DNA of 64,000 nt from Escherichia phage moskry: the sequence record MN850651.1; one strand, 5' to 3'. Below the pieces are notes generated by a model. The model saw only the letters and a program-made list of their open reading frames with translations. It was not told where the DNA came from and searched no databases. A program made the translations under genes and the position numbers. This document shows positions 24,638 through 62,574 of the stretch, piece after piece. The first letter of the stretch is position 1; every line of letters begins with the position of its first letter.

Positions 24638-24669
24638 CAAAAAAAAAAGGGACCTTACGGTCCCTTTTT
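24638..24669. terminator. Bidirectional terminator between gene 24 (+) and rnlB (-)
   Basis: A-run, hairpin GGGACCuuacGGUCCC, T-run. Confidence 0.7.
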
Positions 24670-24671
24670 CG

Positions 24672-25670
24672 TTATGATACTAATTCAATCCATGCAGGAC
24701 GCAGAACATCTTGCACCATTCTGACTAATTCTTTCTTAACAAGATTCGGATTATCAGATGATGTTAATACAATACCTTCACGAGAAGTTTCTTCCAGAAT
24801 ATCTTGAACAGTCAATCCCATCACTTTGCCAAAATCTTTTGGCGTTACAGTCCCAATCTTAGAAATCACATTATTAATACGATTTAATGTAACATAACAA
24901 GCTAGAACATCAAGCAAGTTTTTGTCAGTTTCGGTTAATGGAACCTGAGTTTTAATAGGCTTATCAGACTTTTTCTTTTCACTGAATTTAGAGTTCTTGC
25001 ACTTAATAGCTACACGAGTACCGTTTGGCAGCCATTTAGGGAAACAGGGCTTCAGAACATAACCTTCTGCCGTATTATCGCCAATAACATTAGCATCAAA
25101 TACGCAATTATTTGCTTCGACAAGGTCTTCCGATGCCGTGGCGTTATAAGCGGCTAAGACGGAATCAAGGTCATTTGGAATCATGATAAGAGAATCAAAT
25201 GTTCCACGTCCAAGCATTGGTGCCATTTTAAAACCGAATTCATTACAGAAATCTTGCATTTCGTAATCGGTCAAATACGTATTATCACCACTTTCTGTAT
25301 TGATAAGGATATCGAACACGTAAAAATCTTTTTCACCGTAGTCAACACCTTTCTGGATTCCACCACCAGCGAATTCACCGAATACTTGATATGATACGGC
25401 TCGAGCTGTGTACATGAATTCCTGAACGGCTTTAATAGCTTTATCATACTTCTTGAGTATGATTTCATAACCATAAAAATCTTCTGCTGGAAGAATAGGG
25501 CCTGTGCGCTTGGCGCATGTGACGTTGTCACGTTCAATTATTAACGAGAAGTTAGTCCCATGGATTTTCTCACGTGCTACCCAAACACCAGTAGTCAAAC
25601 CATTAGTGTAGAGTTTTTCAATAAACTTAGAGTTGTAGTGGTTTTCAAGACTGCTGTATTTCTTAAACAT
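24672..25670 (-). CDS. rnlB: RNA ligase 2
   Basis: 332 aa; nucleotidyltransferase motif I KIHGTN; MotA-box middle promoter upstream. Confidence 0.85.
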
Positions 25671-45400: not shown

Positions 45401-45766
45401 TTAGATATCAAATTCGTTAAGAACTACATCAAAGATTGCTTCGAGATGTTCAGGTTTAGCTCGGTTACTCAGGATATGACGAATCCAAGTTTTAACCAGA
45501 AGTTTACGATTAACACCATTCCAGCAAGGATGAGTACCTAAATCACGTTGACGGAAATCATCATCTAATGCAATTTTGAAGTTGGAACCTTCCATTGTGA
45601 TTGAAACCGTGATGCCATTTTCAAATCGCATATAAACATAATTAGGAGTCATATACTGCTCAATTTCACATACTGAACCATTTTTATGCTTCCACAAACA
45701 AACCATATCGATAGAACCAGCGATACCGTTAGAAACATATTTGCGTTCGAAGTTGGTGTAGTTCAT
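45401..45766 (-). CDS. Hypothetical protein
   Basis: 121 aa; RBS GGAG; own early promoter at 45808-45836. Confidence 0.5.
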   Translation of the reverse strand: MNYTNFERKYVSNGIAGSIDMVCLWKHKNGSVCEIEQYMTPNYVYMRFENGITVSITMEGSNFKIALDDDFRQRDLGTHPCWNGVNRKLLVKTWIRHILSNRAKPEHLEAIFDVVLNEFDI

Positions 45767-45807: not shown

Positions 45808-45836
45808 ATAATAACATAACCTGTACCAAAGTAAAC
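45808..45836 (-). promoter_or_regulatory. Early promoter for ORF 45401-45766
   Basis: GTTTAC-N17-TATTAT; -10 sits in the loop of a 10-bp inverted repeat. Confidence 0.55.
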
Positions 45837-45840
45837 TGTT

Positions 45841-46209
45841 TTATGCAACTTTAATCCAATTGTCTAAATTTAAAACACCTTTGGCTTTCATTTTTTCGAT
45901 CAGGTTATCTGCTGTAATGCGTCCATTTTGATACCATGTAACATCTTCAGAGTAACCAGTTTCTTCGTCAACATATGTTTCTGAACGAATTTTACCGGTA
46001 ATAATAGTTTTTAATTCGTATGTGTCGCCTGTGAAAAAGTTTGCTAACACAATTTTCCAAGAGAAATCATCAGAAGGACCTTCAGGGGTCATACAACCTA
46101 CGAACTCAAATTGCTCTTTGTATAACATCCACTGGAATTCTTTAATTTCGATAGCTTTATAACCGTCATGGTCTTTACATTTGATGTATGAGTTCAGATT
46201 GATTTTCAT
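45841..46209 (-). CDS. Hypothetical protein
   Basis: 122 aa; RBS GGAG; own early promoter at 46251-46280. Confidence 0.5.
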   Translation of the reverse strand: MKINLNSYIKCKDHDGYKAIEIKEFQWMLYKEQFEFVGCMTPEGPSDDFSWKIVLANFFTGDTYELKTIITGKIRSETYVDEETGYSEDVTWYQNGRITADNLIEKMKAKGVLNLDNWIKVA

Positions 46210-46250
46210 TTTATTCTCCGATTGTTTTATTGATTAGGTGGTACAAGTCT

Positions 46251-46280
46251 ATAGTAACACCATCCTACAGGATAGTAAAC
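46251..46280 (-). promoter_or_regulatory. Early promoter for ORF 45841-46209
   Basis: GTTTAC-N18-TACTAT. Confidence 0.55.
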
Positions 46281-46311
46281 ATCTTTTTTAAACTTTTTCT
46301 GCCCTAAACGC

Positions 46312-46335
46312 ACAAAAGGGAGACCGAAGTCTCCC
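46312..46335 (-). terminator. Terminator after the 59-aa basic ORF
   Basis: Hairpin GGGAGACuucgGUCUCCC followed by UUUUGUG on the - strand. Confidence 0.6.
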
Positions 46336-46340
46336 TAAAA

Positions 46341-46520
46341 TTATGCAACAACCTTTCCAAAACGAGAAGCATCATCTCGAAGAACTGCACGTGCTCTGCG
46401 CATGATCTTCTCAACTGTTTGATTAATACGAGAGTTCGACCCACGCTTGTATCCAGCGCGTTTAGAGGTACCATCAACTTTCTTTTCAACTGCTTTCTTT
46501 GCTTTAGCTTGTTTTGCCAT
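46341..46520 (-). CDS. Small basic 59-aa protein, absent from the ORF track
   Basis: Hand translation MAKQAKAKKAVEKKVDGTSKRAGYKRGSNSR...; ends just before terminator hairpin 46318-46335; the ORF-track alternative runs through the hairpin. Confidence 0.4.
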   Translation of the reverse strand: MAKQAKAKKAVEKKVDGTSKRAGYKRGSNSRINQTVEKIMRRARAVLRDDASRFGKVVA

Positions 46521-46677
46521 TATAAATTCTCTTTAAATGAAAATGCAGGACTTATTGACATTGCCTGCGCAAGCCCTCAAGGGGAACATAGGTTTTGGAT
46601 ATTTAACGACAGGATAACCATAAACCTCGTCATCATACCAACCACGACTTAGACAGATAACCTTTTTCTGACGCGTG

Positions 46678-46706
46678 ATAGTATAAAATACATTCAAGAG
46701 GTACAC
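46678..46706 (-). promoter_or_regulatory. Candidate early promoter inside the rIII-30.9 non-coding region
   Basis: GTGTAC-N17-TACTAT, about 155 nt upstream of the 59-aa ORF. Confidence 0.4.
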
Positions 46707-46816
46707 CGTAAAACTGCCGGGGTCTTAAAACTATAATGATTCGCAAATCATTAATCAGACAGTTCGACGGCTCCTCGATTTTCTAGCCGCACTTAAGGTA
46801 GCGAATCACCTAAAAC

Positions 46817-47065
46817 TTATTTAAGGGTGATAACAAAATGACGTACTGCTTTACGAGCTGCAGAAGCCAAAGGCTTAGCATATTTCAGTTCATCTTTTGC
46901 TTCCAGTTCAGAAGCCAAAGCTGCCTGTACCGGGTTCAGATGTTTGAAATATCGCAGGATTTCAAGAGCTTCGGCTTCAACATCAATAGATGCGCCATAG
47001 TTTTCGTGGCCGTTATTCCATGCGTTTCGTTGCAGTTCAAGAGCGTGTTGTAATTGTTTAATCAT
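46817..47065 (-). CDS. rIII: Putative lysis-inhibition accessory protein rIII
   Basis: 82 aa as in T4 rIII; lies between the 30.x island and gene 31. Confidence 0.6.
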   Translation of the reverse strand: MIKQLQHALELQRNAWNNGHENYGASIDVEAEALEILRYFKHLNPVQAALASELEAKDELKYAKPLASAARKAVRHFVITLK

Positions 47066-47181
47066 TTTAAATTCTCAATTCGAGATAATATTTAGTAGCC
47101 ACGTTCGTCTGAATTTCACTTCCTTTCGACAAGTCTCTCAGTTGTAGGCTACCGCTTAGAAGAGTGTTCTCTTCATATAGT

Positions 47182-47189
47182 TATTTATA
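47182..47189 (-). promoter_or_regulatory. Candidate late promoter for rIII
   Basis: Reverse-strand TATAAATA immediately after the gene 31 stop, about 120 nt upstream of rIII. Confidence 0.4.
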
Positions 47190-47522
47190 TCACTTATAAA
47201 GACACGGAATAGCTTTATAGTGGCATGTTACGAATTTCTGTTTAATTTCTTTAGGATGTTTAAGTCCCAAAGCCACAAATGGATGTGGAACATTTCGAAT
47301 TTGTCCAACTGGTAGTGGAGTCAAATCACCGACTTCAACAAAACCTTTAGGAACATCAGGACCTACAGAATGAACTACACATAGTTCAGGAACTTCACCT
47401 TGAACACGTTTACCAATCACAAGTCCTGATTCGGTAACTTCTTCATCACCTGCTTGAGCGGGTTCAGAAACCAGAATAACATATTCACCAACAGCACGAA
47501 TTGGGAGTTGTACTTCAGACAT
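47190..47522 (-). CDS. 31: Co-chaperonin gp31 (GroES analogue)
   Basis: 110 aa; near-identical to T4 gp31; MotA-box middle promoter upstream. Confidence 0.95.
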
Positions 47523-47579: not shown

Positions 47580-47888
47580 TTACATAAGAAGCAAACGTTC
47601 TACTGGAGTACCATCAACCGAAATTACTTTATCAAGGCGGAAAGAACGCCACTGACCTAACTCGGTATCGAATGCTCGAACTGATTCACGAGGTTCAGAA
47701 CGAACTTCTGTTGATGGGTTACTATTTTCATATTTGACTTCAAGTTCATCGCGGGAGGCAAACATCGTACGAACATCACCGTTAGCCTTTTCAAATACAA
47801 CACAATGAACGCCTACAGACAGAATAGTTTTAATACGTTCACGAAGAACCATAGTTTCTCGTTCAGTTAAAATCATATTATTCACCAC
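47580..47888 (-). CDS. Hypothetical protein (31.1-like position)
   Basis: 102-aa ORF upstream of gene 31. Confidence 0.5.
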   Translation of the reverse strand: MVNNMILTERETMVLRERIKTILSVGVHCVVFEKANGDVRTMFASRDELEVKYENSNPSTEVRSEPRESVRAFDTELGQWRSFRLDKVISVDGTPVERLLLM

Positions 47889-48459
47889 AAAAGTTTCGGA
47901 TTTGTTCCCAATTCAGAGAACGAAGATTATTACGAGAGTACTGAATTACTTCAATACCGGCTTGTTTTAGAATGTCGGCCCAATTTTCAGGAGATCTGTC
48001 ATATAATTCCGCGTATACAACCTTTTTAATACCTGACTGCGTAATAGCTTTAGTGCAATCAGGACACGGAGAAAGCGTAGTATATAACGTAGCACCTTCA
48101 ATAGAATTACCTTTACGAGCTGCAAACAAAATTGCGTTCAGTTCCGCATGGATTTCGTTATTAGCAGACCATGCACTATGAGCGGCCCGATGTTCTTTAG
48201 CCAAAACAAAATTATCCACCCGTCCAAATGCTGTAGTGCCTTCTTTATGCCCAGCAACGATGACCGGGCTTGGTTTATTCTTCAACCAACCGTTTTCGGA
48301 TGCATGTTCACAACAGTTAACACCACCGGCCGGGCTACCGTTATACCCAGTAGAAATAATGCGCCCATCTTTTTCAATGACGGCACCAACTTTCCATGAA
48401 CAACATTTTGATTCTTGAGAAATCAGATATGCAATCTGAAGGTATGTGCTAGCTTTCAT
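47878..48459 (-). CDS. cd: dCMP deaminase
   Basis: 193 aa as in T4; zinc-binding deaminase motifs HAELNAI and SPCPDC. Confidence 0.9.
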   Translation of the reverse strand: MKASTYLQIAYLISQESKCCSWKVGAVIEKDGRIISTGYNGSPAGGVNCCEHASENGWLKNKPSPVIVAGHKEGTTAFGRVDNFVLAKEHRAAHSAWSANNEIHAELNAILFAARKGNSIEGATLYTTLSPCPDCTKAITQSGIKKVVYAELYDRSPENWADILKQAGIEVIQYSRNNLRSLNWEQIRNFCGE

Positions 48460-49451
48460 TATTGAACCTTATTAATATAAGTTAACAGCTCTTTAGTTTG
48501 TTCCCAACTGATGCACGCATCGGTAACGGAAACGCCATAGGACATATTATCAGAAATTTTTTGATTTCCTTCATGTAGGAATGATTCTATCATAATTCCT
48601 TTGACCAAATCATTAGCTGCTAAATTTTTACCAATACCAATTTGATTGCTATAATGCCCATCAGCGTTTGCATGGCTACAGTCAACCATTACATAATGAT
48701 TCAGACCTACTGCACTTGCTTTGTTAGAAGCTTCTTGAATATCAGAAGAATGATAGTTCGGGCCGTTGGTCCCGCCACGCAATACGATATGCGTATTCTG
48801 ATTACCTTCAGCTTCAACAATGCCTACAGTACCATCGACGTCCATACCCATATACCGATGAGGCCAGGCGGCACTATACATCGCGTCTGTAGCTACTTTA
48901 ATAGAACCATTGGTTGCGTTCTTGAAGCCTACGCACATCGGTAGACCTGAAGCAATTTCACGATGTGTCTGACTTTCAGTCGTACGGGCGCCAATAGCAA
49001 CCCATGAGAAAATACCAGAAAGATACTTAATCGTGAATGGGTCTAATACTTCAGTTGCTAATGGAAGTCCCATACGTAGAAGTTTACGACACAATGTTCG
49101 TGCAACTATAAGACCGTGGTTCATATCAAAACTTCCGTCAAGATATGGATCATTTACAAGACCTTTCCAACCTACGGTAGTTCGAGGCTTTTCAAAATAA
49201 ACGCGCATCACTAACAGAACATTAGGAAGACGAGTTTGAAGTTCAGCCAAACGTTTGCCGTATTCAACAGCAGCAATAGGGTCATGAATTGAACAAGGAC
49301 CTACAACAATAAGTTTGCGTGGGTCTTCACCGTTCATAATCGAATTAACTTGTTCGCGATGAGAAGCCACTTGTGATGCGTAAGCTTCCGACAAAGGAAT
49401 AATCTCAGCCAGTTCTTTTGGAGAAATAAGTTTTCCGACGACAGGTAACAT
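48459..49451 (-). CDS. 3-deoxy-D-arabino-heptulosonate 7-phosphate (DAHP) synthase, type I-alpha (AroF/AroG/AroH family)
   Basis: 330 aa; motifs GPCSIHD, VMRVYFEKPRTTVGWKGL, GARTTESQTHRE, ILRGG, DCSHAN, ESFLHEGNQ, YGVSVTDACISWE; metal ligands Cys/His/Glu/Asp and PEP-binding Lys/Arg conserved; RBS AAGGA. Confidence 0.85.
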   Translation of the reverse strand: MLPVVGKLISPKELAEIIPLSEAYASQVASHREQVNSIMNGEDPRKLIVVGPCSIHDPIAAVEYGKRLAELQTRLPNVLLVMRVYFEKPRTTVGWKGLVNDPYLDGSFDMNHGLIVARTLCRKLLRMGLPLATEVLDPFTIKYLSGIFSWVAIGARTTESQTHREIASGLPMCVGFKNATNGSIKVATDAMYSAAWPHRYMGMDVDGTVGIVEAEGNQNTHIVLRGGTNGPNYHSSDIQEASNKASAVGLNHYVMVDCSHANADGHYSNQIGIGKNLAANDLVKGIMIESFLHEGNQKISDNMSYGVSVTDACISWEQTKELLTYINKVQ

Positions 49452-61586: not shown

Positions 61587-62486
61587 TTATAGACCAGCTA
61601 ACAGGTCATCGAGGTCGCCATCGTCAGAAGACGAGGAACTCATGAAGTCATCTTCAGTTTTTGCAGAACCAAAGGCTTCCATGTCTTTATCAAAATCATC
61701 AAGGTCAGAAGCAACTTTATCTGCAACAGAAGCTGCTGCGGCTGCTGCACCACCAAGAGCGGCAGTACCAAGAACTTGATTAAATTTAGTATTCAATTCT
61801 TCAAACGATTTGAACTTATCTTTAGAAGTCATTTCAGAAAGGTCGACCATTTGTTCGAACAATTCTTTTTGGAAAGATTCATCATCAATGTTTGGAATCG
61901 CAGATTGATTCAGGAATTTAGATTCATCGTAGTTACTGAAACCAGAAACCTGTTTAACTTTCAGCACAAAGTTAGCACCTTCCCATGGGCAAGTTACATC
62001 AACAGGAGTTTCACCCATTTCAGTATCGACTGCAATCATTGCATTGATTTTGTCCCAAATCTTTTTACCGAAACGATATTTGAATACTTTACCTTCATTA
62101 TCTGGAGCTTGTGGGTCTTTAACAACCAGAATATTAGCCCAATAAGAAGTTTTACGTTTCAGTTGAGAATATTCAGTTTTGTTGGTATTGTACAGGTCAT
62201 TTTTACTAATGTACTGACATACAGGACAAGAGTCATAATCGCCGTGTGTAGATGAACAGGTTTCAATATACCATTTACCATTTTTCTTGAACCCGTGGTT
62301 AACAAGAATTGTAAACGGAAGTGCGTCATCTGTTTTTGCCGGCAGGAAACGAATTACCGCTTGACCATTACCGGATGCATCGAGTTTCAGCTTCCATTCA
62401 CCTTTATCTTCTGAAGAGAAACCTTTGTTACCATTCAGTTTAGCCATCTGAGCTGCGAGGTCTGCGGTACTTTTACGTTTAAACAT
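61587..62486 (-). CDS. 32: Single-stranded DNA-binding protein gp32
   Basis: 299 aa; near-identical to T4 gp32; autoregulatory leader upstream. Confidence 0.97.
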
Positions 62487-62565
62487 TTTATTTGCCTTTA
62501 TTTAGATTATTAATTAAATTTTACAGTTGGTTGCTACGACACTTATACCTCGTAGCTGGTATGTT
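62487..62565 (-). promoter_or_regulatory. Gene 32 autoregulatory translational operator (hairpin/pseudoknot plus A/U-rich unstructured tract)
   Basis: Leader has stem GCUACGA/UCGUAGC followed by AAAAUUUAAUUAAUAAUCUAAAUAAAGGCAAAUAAA-AUG, the layout known for the T4 gene 32 operator. Confidence 0.6.
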
Positions 62566-62566
62566 T

Positions 62567-62574
62567 TATTTATA
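62567..62574 (-). promoter_or_regulatory. Late promoter TATAAATA for gene 32
   Basis: Reverse-strand exact match upstream of the gene 32 leader. Confidence 0.6.

Follow-up and report, generated by a model that had tools for sequence, protein, structure and literature searches.

We find that the 296-nucleotide (nt) spacer between genes rIII and 30.9 of Escherichia phage moskry (positions 46521-46816 of the 64,000-nt stretch of sequence record MN850651.1 that was analysed here and is referred to as the window) very probably encodes an RNA structure that has been maintained by selection. The RNA has the sense of the window minus strand, on which all of the features described below lie, and its predicted modules, each of which would fold separately, are, in the 5' to 3' direction, a small hairpin (H1), Domain 1, hairpin C, an H-type pseudoknot (module A), hairpins D and E, and a pairing between the Shine-Dalgarno (SD) sequence of 30.9 and a tract complementary to it (anti-SD). 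Our preferred interpretation, to which we assign a probability of about 0.5, is that the spacer is a conserved multi-domain structured RNA that acts in cis as an intercistronic leader in an rIII-30.9 mRNA. An earlier reading made from the letters of the window alone (the sequence-only reading) had suggested a small RNA or a cis-regulatory leader as a possible occupant of the interval; the conservation, helices, pseudoknots and compensatory changes described below agree with this suggestion.

The spacer runs exactly from the rIII stop codon to the 30.9 ATG and is the largest gene-free interval in the window, since all other intergenic gaps in the 64 kb measure 130 bp or less in the annotation of a 100% identical phage, vB_EQ1. 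Escherichia phages vB_EQ1 and AV110 are both 100% identical to the window across this region, and the window genome is a Mosigvirus (T4-like, Tevenvirinae). The equivalent gap of T4 (244 bp at 130541-130784) is likewise unannotated. We assembled a sample of 49 different rIII-to-30.9 spacers of 119-416 nt from IMG/VR and from GenBank phages (individual loci carry L numbers), covering Tequatrovirus, Mosigvirus, Dhakavirus, Gelderlandvirus and Tegunavirus and Klebsiella-, Enterobacter-, Citrobacter- and Proteus-type relatives; sequence diversity inside the T4/Mosigvirus group is low. Between the window phage and T4, third codon positions have diverged by 26% in gene 31, 29% in rIII, 26% in 30.7 and 11% in 30.9. 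In the spacer, the same two phages differ at 2 of 93 aligned sites in Domain 1, at 2 of 116 sites (plus four 1-nt indels) in the part that comprises modules A, D, E and the SD sequence, and at 10 of 31 sites in the first 33 nt, which hold H1. The spacer without H1 is thus approximately 2% diverged from T4, several-fold below the silent sites of 30.9. The comparison among relatives that the sequence-only reading had recommended therefore reveals conservation far above neutral expectation, and helices that stay paired by way of compensatory changes.

The interval had been described both as ORF-free and as non-coding. The former does not hold to the letter, as the gene strand carries a 57-codon open reading frame (ORF) with a GTG start (46533-46706), which is annotated as a hypothetical protein in vB_EQ1 and is not conserved; the latter is borne out by the reading frames, which are broken among relatives. 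Of the sequences inspected, only the window, L018, L054 and L058 retain the complete 57-codon ORF. Indels of 1 nt shift the frame or cut it short in L007, L205, L060 and T4, as well as in L001 and L002, two loci with 97-99% identity to the window; T4 also lacks 52 nt of the ORF. The 19-codon upstream ORF (uORF) noted earlier is present as 18 amino acids plus a stop codon (46533-46589), in frame with the 57-codon ORF and with its stop 12 nt before the 30.9 ATG; it is limited to the T4/Mosigvirus/Dhakavirus group, is not preceded by an SD sequence and has lost its ATG in L008. The shortest spacers, those of ECp13 (119 nt) and L025 (120 nt), contain no ORF of at least 20 amino acids, and neither the 57-codon ORF nor a 37-codon ORF annotated in phage G53 matched a Pfam or PHROG family. 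From these comparisons of sequence, we judge that the ORFs in the gap are not genes.

Known RNA families do not account for the interval either. A permissive cmscan of positions 46000-47400 against Rfam 15 (E up to 10) returned no match inside 46521-46816 and only sub-threshold chance matches outside it, and a scan of 12 related loci returned none at E ≤1; the check with covariance models that had been advised thus yields no known family. ARAGORN detected no tRNA or tmRNA in the entire window, consistent with the earlier failure to find a tRNA-like cloverleaf. The minimum free energy (MFE) fold of the whole gap on the minus strand is no better than those of shuffled sequences (z = -0.55; plus strand, z = -2.0), and thermodynamics alone would therefore have missed the structure. 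Several helices hold invariant G·U pairs, which on the other strand would turn into C·A mismatches, and this identifies the structured molecule as the sense (minus-strand) RNA. We note that the covariation tests reported here use related sequences and structures derived from those same sequences; the shuffle counts are accordingly not probabilities, and the controls with slid structures are the fairer comparison.

In the part of the spacer close to 30.9, covariation supports module A (46589-46635). P1 of this H-type pseudoknot is GAC-g-AGG/CCU-GUC, and P2, formed by the hairpin loop and a downstream tract, is UA-u-GG/CCUA; elsewhere P2 reads GUUGG/CCAAC, GGUAG/CUACU, GUGAG/CUCAC or GAUGG/CCAUC, and the 15-nt L3 (GUUAAAUAUCCAAAA) is nearly invariant. 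Exactly one copy was found in each of the first 43 spacers, and the six spacers added later also contain it as judged by eye (49 of 49). Across 29 distinct sequences, 82.8% of the cells of P1 and P2 are paired, compared with 64% in shuffles, and the covariation score of 0.476 (0.171 in shuffles) was equalled in none of 500 shuffles and was at most 0.137 in slid controls; 8 of the 11 pairs display changes on both sides. A covariance model of module A has a single match in the window (46583-46635, 70.3 bits, E = 4e-15) and one match per T4-like locus, and it has none in approximately 40 unrelated contigs that share the sequence pattern. When metagenome contigs were searched with a degenerate pattern, 3 of 108 matches were genuine, all of them T4-like, and no new contexts emerged. 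The idea that the modules are dispersed repeats was rejected, as their motifs are unique in the 64-kb window.

Two hairpins and a short tract separate module A from the start codon. Hairpin D (CCCC-UUGA-GGG; 46574-46584), identified by eye and without statistics, is followed by a conserved CUUGCG and occurs in 45 of the 49 spacers, with the stem variants CCCU/AGGG, GCCU/AGGC, GCU/AGC and CCUC/GAGG. Hairpin E (GCAGG/CCUGC; 46545-46568) encloses a conserved 14-nt loop, CAAUGUCAAUAAGU, and its stem is ACUGG/CCAGU in L023, L201 and L028, where two pairs are changed on both sides. A longer hairpin around E returned by RNAalifold (AGGGCUUG/UAAGUCCU), which together with D would resemble an attenuator-like switch, was discarded: in L201 and L028, the long pairing is disrupted by the same substitutions that are compensatory in the short E stem. 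Downstream of E, the pyrimidine tract AUUUUC is predicted to pair with GAGAAU in the SD region of 30.9 (46526-46544; the SD sequence itself is AAGAG, 46529-46533). Every lineage inspected has a tract complementary to the SD sequence before the start of 30.9 (for example UCC/GGA, CCUC/GAGG in L071 and AUUCU/AGAAU in L060), and the resulting pairing would be weak, involving 3-6 bp.

In addition, we noted that hairpins C, E and E'' (the last in L014, L066 and L202) have in common a 3'-side motif, UAAG(U/A)C, beside the closing stem. Further, the hairpin E loop AAUAAGUC is one base away from AAUAACUC, the operator loop of T4 gene 43. The shared motif and the gene 43-like loop could reflect a common protein-binding motif or chance. 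A possible RegB site was discarded, as the GGAG at GAGGAGCC deviates from the GGAGRAYARAA consensus and lies inside a helix (PMC3014915).

The 5' part of the spacer holds H1 and Domain 1. H1 (46787-46811), defined by alignment and pair counts and found in 26 of the 49 spacers, may be a small H-type pseudoknot. Its stem S2, UUCGC/GCGG, closes a conserved 10-nt loop (UACCUUAAGU), is 93% paired and shows compensatory change in two pairs (GC to AU; CG to UA/AU), and the stem reads CGC/GCG, CAC/GUG, UGC/GCA or AGC/GCU in different lineages. S1, in which an upstream AGGUG can pair with UACCU of the loop, is 79% paired with one compensatory pair; it is AGUG/UACU in two lineages and imperfect in T4. 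Domain 1 (46698-46776) consists of a 17-bp interrupted closing helix, GAGG.GCCGU.GAACUGUC with GGCAGUUU.ACGGU...CCUC, around an inner hairpin. In the 84-nt domain, the MFE structure equals the centroid (-25.9 kcal/mol, z = -3.53; none of 200 shuffles folds as well) and also the structure obtained from covariation, and RNAalifold returns the identical helix. Three pairs of the helix have changed in a compensatory manner, one from GC to AU (three phages) and two from CG to UA (one in L058, the other in L052 and L054). A local hairpin within Domain 1 (ACCCCG...CGGUGU), considered by analogy with helix Pd of module B (see below), gave way to the long-range helix, the only one of the two in which the changes in L052/L054 and L058 are compensatory. 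In Gelderlandvirus, the closing helix is the sole remnant of Domain 1.

The inner hairpin of Domain 1, UAAUGAUU-UGCG-AAUCAUUA (46734-46753), is the hairpin that the sequence-only reading had placed just after the rIII stop codon. The hairpin is real, begins 63 nt beyond the stop codon and, with 8 bp, is longer than described. It reads UAUCGAUU/AAUCGGUA in the Dhakavirus-type loci L058 and L200, where two pairs are changed on both sides and the stem stays intact. We rejected the possibility that it is a terminator: it is the inner arm of the 84-nt domain, and a terminator scan of the minus strand of the gap returned no terminator-like site. Nor do the hairpins of the gap have the make-up of an intrinsic terminator, for which we looked for a GC-rich stem of at least 5 bp, a loop of 3-8 nt and a U-tract after it: the loop of hairpin E spans 14 nt, and seven of the eight pairs of the inner hairpin are A-U (the other is G-C). 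Taken together, H1, Domain 1 and the inner hairpin are 99.3% paired, and six pairs are changed on both sides, compared with 1.9 in shuffles (none of 500 as high) and at most one in slid controls.

Between Domain 1 and module A, the window contains module C (46638-46689), a 52-nt cassette delimited by alignments that has no counterpart in T4. Its inner hairpin, CAGA-AAAAGGUUA-UCUG (46654-46670), is CAGC/GCUG in L005, L203 and L026, which is a compensatory change; the local fold is weak (z = -1.2). Module C occupies a fixed junction (...CTCTTGAATGT / insert / ATGATGACG...) that holds nothing in T4, the 52-nt module C in the window and the approximately 150-nt module B in L050, L051 and L061. Module B, which occurs only in the spacers of relatives (L010-L012, L014, L015, L017, L019-L022, L024, L027, L029, L050, L051, L061, L067-L069 and L071), is a perfect four-way junction with a 6-bp kissing loop (variants CGAUGG/CCAUCG, CUAUGG/CCAUAG and CAAUGA/UCAUUG) and a GNRA-capped hairpin. 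In this module 98.2% of cells are paired and 23 of 46 pairs are changed on both sides, compared with 9.7 in shuffles; it has no Rfam match and is present in a single copy per genome or contig. The spacers as a whole are mosaics of these modules. The order is H1-Domain 1-C-A-D-E in the window phage, H1-Domain 1-A-D-E in T4, A-D-E in ECp13 (the shortest), A-H1-B-D-E' in Klebsiella-type loci and D-A-H1-E'' in Yersinia phage TG1.

We next consider the transcripts that would contain the spacer. The upstream cistron, rIII (46817-47065; 82 amino acids), was taken from the ORF list and is 100% identical to annotated rIII genes, and the downstream cistron, 30.9 (46341-46520), encodes a very basic 59-residue protein (phrog_1427) with no Pfam or Protein Data Bank relative that would indicate its function. 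Upstream of rIII, we read a late-promoter box, TATAAATA, from the sequence (47182-47189), and a promoter scan reported a σ70-like site, TTCAGA-17-TATTAT (47085-47113); early, middle and late promoters have been reported for rIII of T4 (PMC9409239). Downstream of 30.9, an intrinsic terminator, GGGAGACUUCGGUCUCCC, is followed by a U-tract (46318-46339; -14.1 kcal/mol, z = -3.75) and is labelled as a terminator in the annotations of ATK47 and G53. Given promoters 5' of rIII, no terminator in the gap and a terminator after 30.9, the spacer is most simply intercistronic in an rIII-30.9 mRNA, and rIII and 30.9 would be co-transcribed as a bicistronic message that extends from the promoters before rIII to the terminator after 30.9. 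In the accessible T4 literature, with older subscription papers outside its scope, we found nothing specific on transcripts, promoters or RNAs of the gap.

On this basis, we propose that the core formed by modules A, D and E and the SD-proximal tract, which appears invariant, lies right before the 30.9 ribosome-binding site and constitutes the entire 119-nt spacer of ECp13, would act in cis and would set translation initiation on 30.9, the stability of the mRNA, or both. Mechanistically, the ribosome-binding site could be occluded, and a protein or the ribosome could bind, or nucleate, at the pseudoknot. The proposal follows the logic of the T4 gene 32 leader. The window has such a gene 32 leader of its own (62458-62574), with the known pseudoknot AGCUACG...CGUAGC (at approximately 62500-62560) and an AU-rich operator of UUAA repeats, and we used it as an internal comparison. 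Both here and in T4 and RB69 gene 32, a phylogenetically conserved H-type pseudoknot is situated in an untranslated leader of a T-even phage, with P1 and P2 of module A covarying, and in the window 68 nt lie between the end of module A and the AUG of 30.9, compared with 67 nt for the gene 32 pseudoknot in T4 (PMC3014915). However, the two pseudoknots have no evident sequence resemblance, and module A is larger, with a bulged P1 of 6-7 bp and a 15-nt L3. Occlusion of the SD sequence has a parallel in T4 genes e, soc, 49 and I-TevI, where a leader structure can pair with the SD sequence on long read-through transcripts (PMC3014915), and a late or middle promoter inside the hairpin yields a shorter, translatable mRNA. 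Unlike in those genes, neither TATAAATA nor a MotA-type promoter lies beside the 30.9 ribosome-binding site, and the pairing is short and is the last element of a 296-nt region.

What the sequences show is that the spacer is non-coding and conserved and that its helices and pseudoknot belong to the sense strand and to this locus, in a single copy; co-transcription with rIII, action in cis on 30.9 and the participation of a protein are inferences. Several observations weigh against a cis-acting leader. In place of the unstructured UUAAA-rich tract of the gene 32 leader, module A is followed by D and E, and a single UUAAA lies inside L3. In further contrast to gene 32, the distance from module A to the start codon varies across lineages, from about 60 to 300 nt (about 68 nt in the window and in ECp13, about 300 nt in the L010 type), and this variation, together with the permuted order of module A relative to H1 and B, is unsuited to an operator that has to reach the ribosome-binding site. 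Modules C (52 nt) and B (approximately 150 nt) are gained and lost between near-identical phages, which is more like the behaviour of accessory cargo. In TG1 (L202, NC_028820, 642-1425), the first 16 codons of 30.9 are fused in frame to an unrelated 208-residue ORF, and modules D, A, H1 and E'' are retained although the body of 30.9 has been lost, which argues against autoregulation by the 30.9 protein. Conversely, L070, an IMG/VR contig that matches Pseudomonas phage PspYZU05, is without rIII and has an extended 30.9 homologue right after gene 31 (approximately 650-900), behind a canonical early promoter (GTTTAC-N17-TATTAT) with a short leader and no module A. Short and AU-rich as they are, the pairings that would occlude the SD sequence could be trivial. 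A recombination tract shared with 30.9 (11% at third positions) may account for part of the low divergence of the spacer, and the effect of common descent is not entirely eliminated by the covariation controls.

The sequence-only reading had also named a candidate early promoter inside the interval. The promoter-like hexamers that it named are present (46678-46706): GTGTAC (46701-46706) and TACTAT (46678-46683) are separated by 17 nt, and the latter lies 157 nt before the ATG. We searched all spacers for a GTKTAC-type -35, a spacing of 16-18 nt and a TAnnAT -10, and found this arrangement in 15 of 49; it is absent from T4, ECp13 and all Klebsiella- and Enterobacter-type loci, and the data do not support the promoter as the feature that organizes the region. 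In T4 the -10 is removed by the 52-nt deletion, in T2-like L205 the spacing is 6 nt shorter (11 nt) so that no promoter matches, and in L005 and L203 the -35 is missing. L007 has the same 6-nt deletion as L205 and matches only via an alternative, TTTTAC-N18-TACTAT, while the 119-nt spacer of ECp13 consists of RNA modules only and has no room for a promoter. The -35 hexamer falls within the 3' strand of the covarying Domain 1 helix (ACGGUGUACCUC), and its conservation is explained by its being part of this helix. For comparison, the minus strand of the window contains ten canonical early promoters (GTTTAC-N16-18-TAnnAT, mostly with TACTAT), compared with 0.78 expected; they include 46251-46280, 45808-45836 and eight other sites, none of them in the gap, and all ten have GTTTAC, from which the candidate -35 differs by one mismatch. 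No AT-rich UP region was found before the candidate -35, where the sequence (GACCCCGGCAGTTTTACG) is that of the Domain 1 helix; a generic promoter scan did not report the candidate; and the mapped middle promoters of T4 include none between P30.2 (128355) and P31 (131540) (PMC2988021, Table 1).

We consider it unlikely, then, that the spacer primarily houses this promoter and that 30.9 is translated from an mRNA with a leader of approximately 150 nt that starts from hairpin C. The case for it is that the canonical early promoters of the window most often have TACTAT as their -10 and the -35 is one base off, that the arrangement is kept in 14 other spacers with the full module C junction (in L007 through the alternative match), and that the transcript would begin at the CAGA...UCUG hairpin, a plausible 5' stabilizer. 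It is contradicted by the 34 of 49 spacers that lack the arrangement, by the missing UP region, the silent scan and the T4 promoter list, and by the helix that accounts for the -35, and it leaves approximately 110 conserved, structured nucleotides upstream, and their covariation, unexplained. The candidate may be a weak, lineage-specific start that accompanies the module C junction; it is not the reason for the existence of the spacer. A different alternative, which we hold as a tentative possibility, is that the spacer gives rise to one or more stand-alone structured RNAs, excised from the rIII-30.9 mRNA or, in this lineage, transcribed from the candidate promoter, with 30.9 merely a downstream neighbour. 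Module A, H1 and Domain 1, and module B in relatives, might then form an undescribed family of modular, autonomous functional RNAs that are ligand or protein sensors (riboswitch-like), or processed trans-acting or decoy RNAs, scaffolds or anti-defence RNAs, exchanged horizontally as non-coding cargo. Such a role would fit the persistence of the folds despite permuted order and the gain and loss of large domains, the ornate module B of approximately 150 nt, which exceeds the needs of a leader, and the modules that TG1 keeps without an intact 30.9. Further, T4 has precedents in rnaC and rnaD (species 1 and 2), stable RNAs that arise by processing and are annotated as non-coding, of unknown function and derived from a polycistronic transcript; however, their locus is the tRNA cluster, and they share no sequence similarity with the spacer beyond chance matches of 9-12-mers. 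The layout of module A (P1, L1, P2, L2, P1', a long A-rich L3 and P2', with conserved loop nucleotides) also recalls the preQ1-I, SAM-II and guanidine-III aptamers, but unlike these small pseudoknot riboswitches it has no Rfam match, no ligand-related gene context and a variable distance to the start codon. Against stand-alone RNAs, we note that no terminator or evident processing site marks a discrete RNA, that the modules are always in the sense orientation and directly adjoin the 30.9 ribosome-binding site, that they belong to no Rfam family and bear no likeness to rnaC and rnaD, and that we identified no conserved unpaired segment that could serve as a seed by complementarity to a target.

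The remaining alternatives do without a functional RNA. We regard as very improbable a feature at the DNA level, be it recombination scars of promoter/terminator cassettes (degraded promoter-early-stem-loop elements, PeSLs) or an element of the origin or repeat type. The swapping of cassettes (none, C or B) at fixed junctions in a mosaic does recall PeSL shuffling (PMC4122927, PMC2839356), and in ATK47 the ribosome-binding site of 30.9, beside the start codon, carries an unexplained 10-bp feature labelled 'ori type 2 repeat'. PeSLs are dispersed and repeated and consist of a stem-loop, an AT-rich region and -35 and -10 elements, followed directly by an SD sequence and a start codon (PMC4122927). 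Like PeSLs, the spacers are intergenic mosaics with cassettes exchanged at conserved junctions and a TAYWAT -10-like element. However, each module of the 30.9 spacer occurs once and is specific to this locus, the cassettes that are swapped specify structured, non-coding RNA, the end of the 8-bp hairpin lies 27 nt ahead of a -35 that is off consensus and inside the closing helix, and the start codon of 30.9 lies 157 nt beyond the -10; with respect to the PeSL promoter, TTTACW-N17-TAYWAT, the -10 TACTAT fits, whereas TGTACC misses two of six positions. Scars, moreover, would not stay at approximately 2% divergence, nor would they give strand-specific G·U helices, pseudoknots and GNRA loops with compensatory changes. 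Least credible of all are one or more small proteins encoded by the 57-codon GTG ORF, the 37-codon TTG ORF (46633-46746) or the 18-residue uORF. ORFs have been called here in two GenBank annotations (vB_EQ1 CDS0134 and G53_00216), and the uORF ends close to the 30.9 ATG. Yet the frames are interrupted in near-identical phages and, by the 52-nt indel, in T4; the starts lack SD sequences, family matches are absent, some spacers have no ORF of relevant length, and the substitutions are compensatory in RNA helices and not biased toward synonymous change.

With regard to the surroundings, the other genes next to the interval are cd (47878-48459), 31.1 (47580-47888) and gene 31 (47190-47522) on the rIII side and 30.8 (45841-46209) and 30.7 (45401-45766) on the 30.9 side. 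The first canonical early promoter after the 30.9 terminator is that of 30.8 (46251-46280), and this terminator and promoter together resemble a typical PeSL cassette. Many GenBank records misname 30.9 homologues as '1,4-alpha-glucan branching enzyme, GH-13-type' or '11.1 kDa protein'. Beside cd, we noted a gene for a 330-residue 3-deoxy-D-arabino-heptulosonate 7-phosphate (DAHP) synthase (48459-49451; AroG-like, catalysing step 1 of the shikimate pathway), an auxiliary metabolic gene for which the annotation of T4 has no counterpart in this place. Elsewhere, the 'RNA ligase' in the annotation of an identical phage is split into two parts (24664-24909 and 25028-25663, minus strand) that lie 118 bp apart, possibly because the gene is disrupted or holds an intron-like insertion, or as an artefact of annotation.

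Gene regulation in phages has its reference system in T4 and the phages related to it, yet this interval of 244-416 nt is unannotated in the T4 reference records and, in some relatives, its only annotation consists of spurious ORFs. Structured or pseudoknot-bearing leaders and phage non-coding RNAs are known kinds of element; the motifs described here are in no RNA family library and appear to be undescribed. In practical terms, automatic ORF calls in the gap should be removed, and the motifs could enter RNA family databases. Should the structures prove real, rIII, an accessory gene of lysis inhibition, and the gene of a conserved small basic protein would be separated by a regulatory or functional RNA that has so far gone undescribed. 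To our knowledge, the gene 32 leader is the only other pseudoknot-bearing leader in T-even phages, and a second one, if real, would make the role of 30.9 and post-transcriptional control in an early/late operon directly testable. If the modules are instead autonomous, they would represent a new class of phage non-coding RNA in the best-studied group of phages. The cassette-like swapping of nothing, module C or module B at a single junction would also extend modular shuffling from genes to RNAs.

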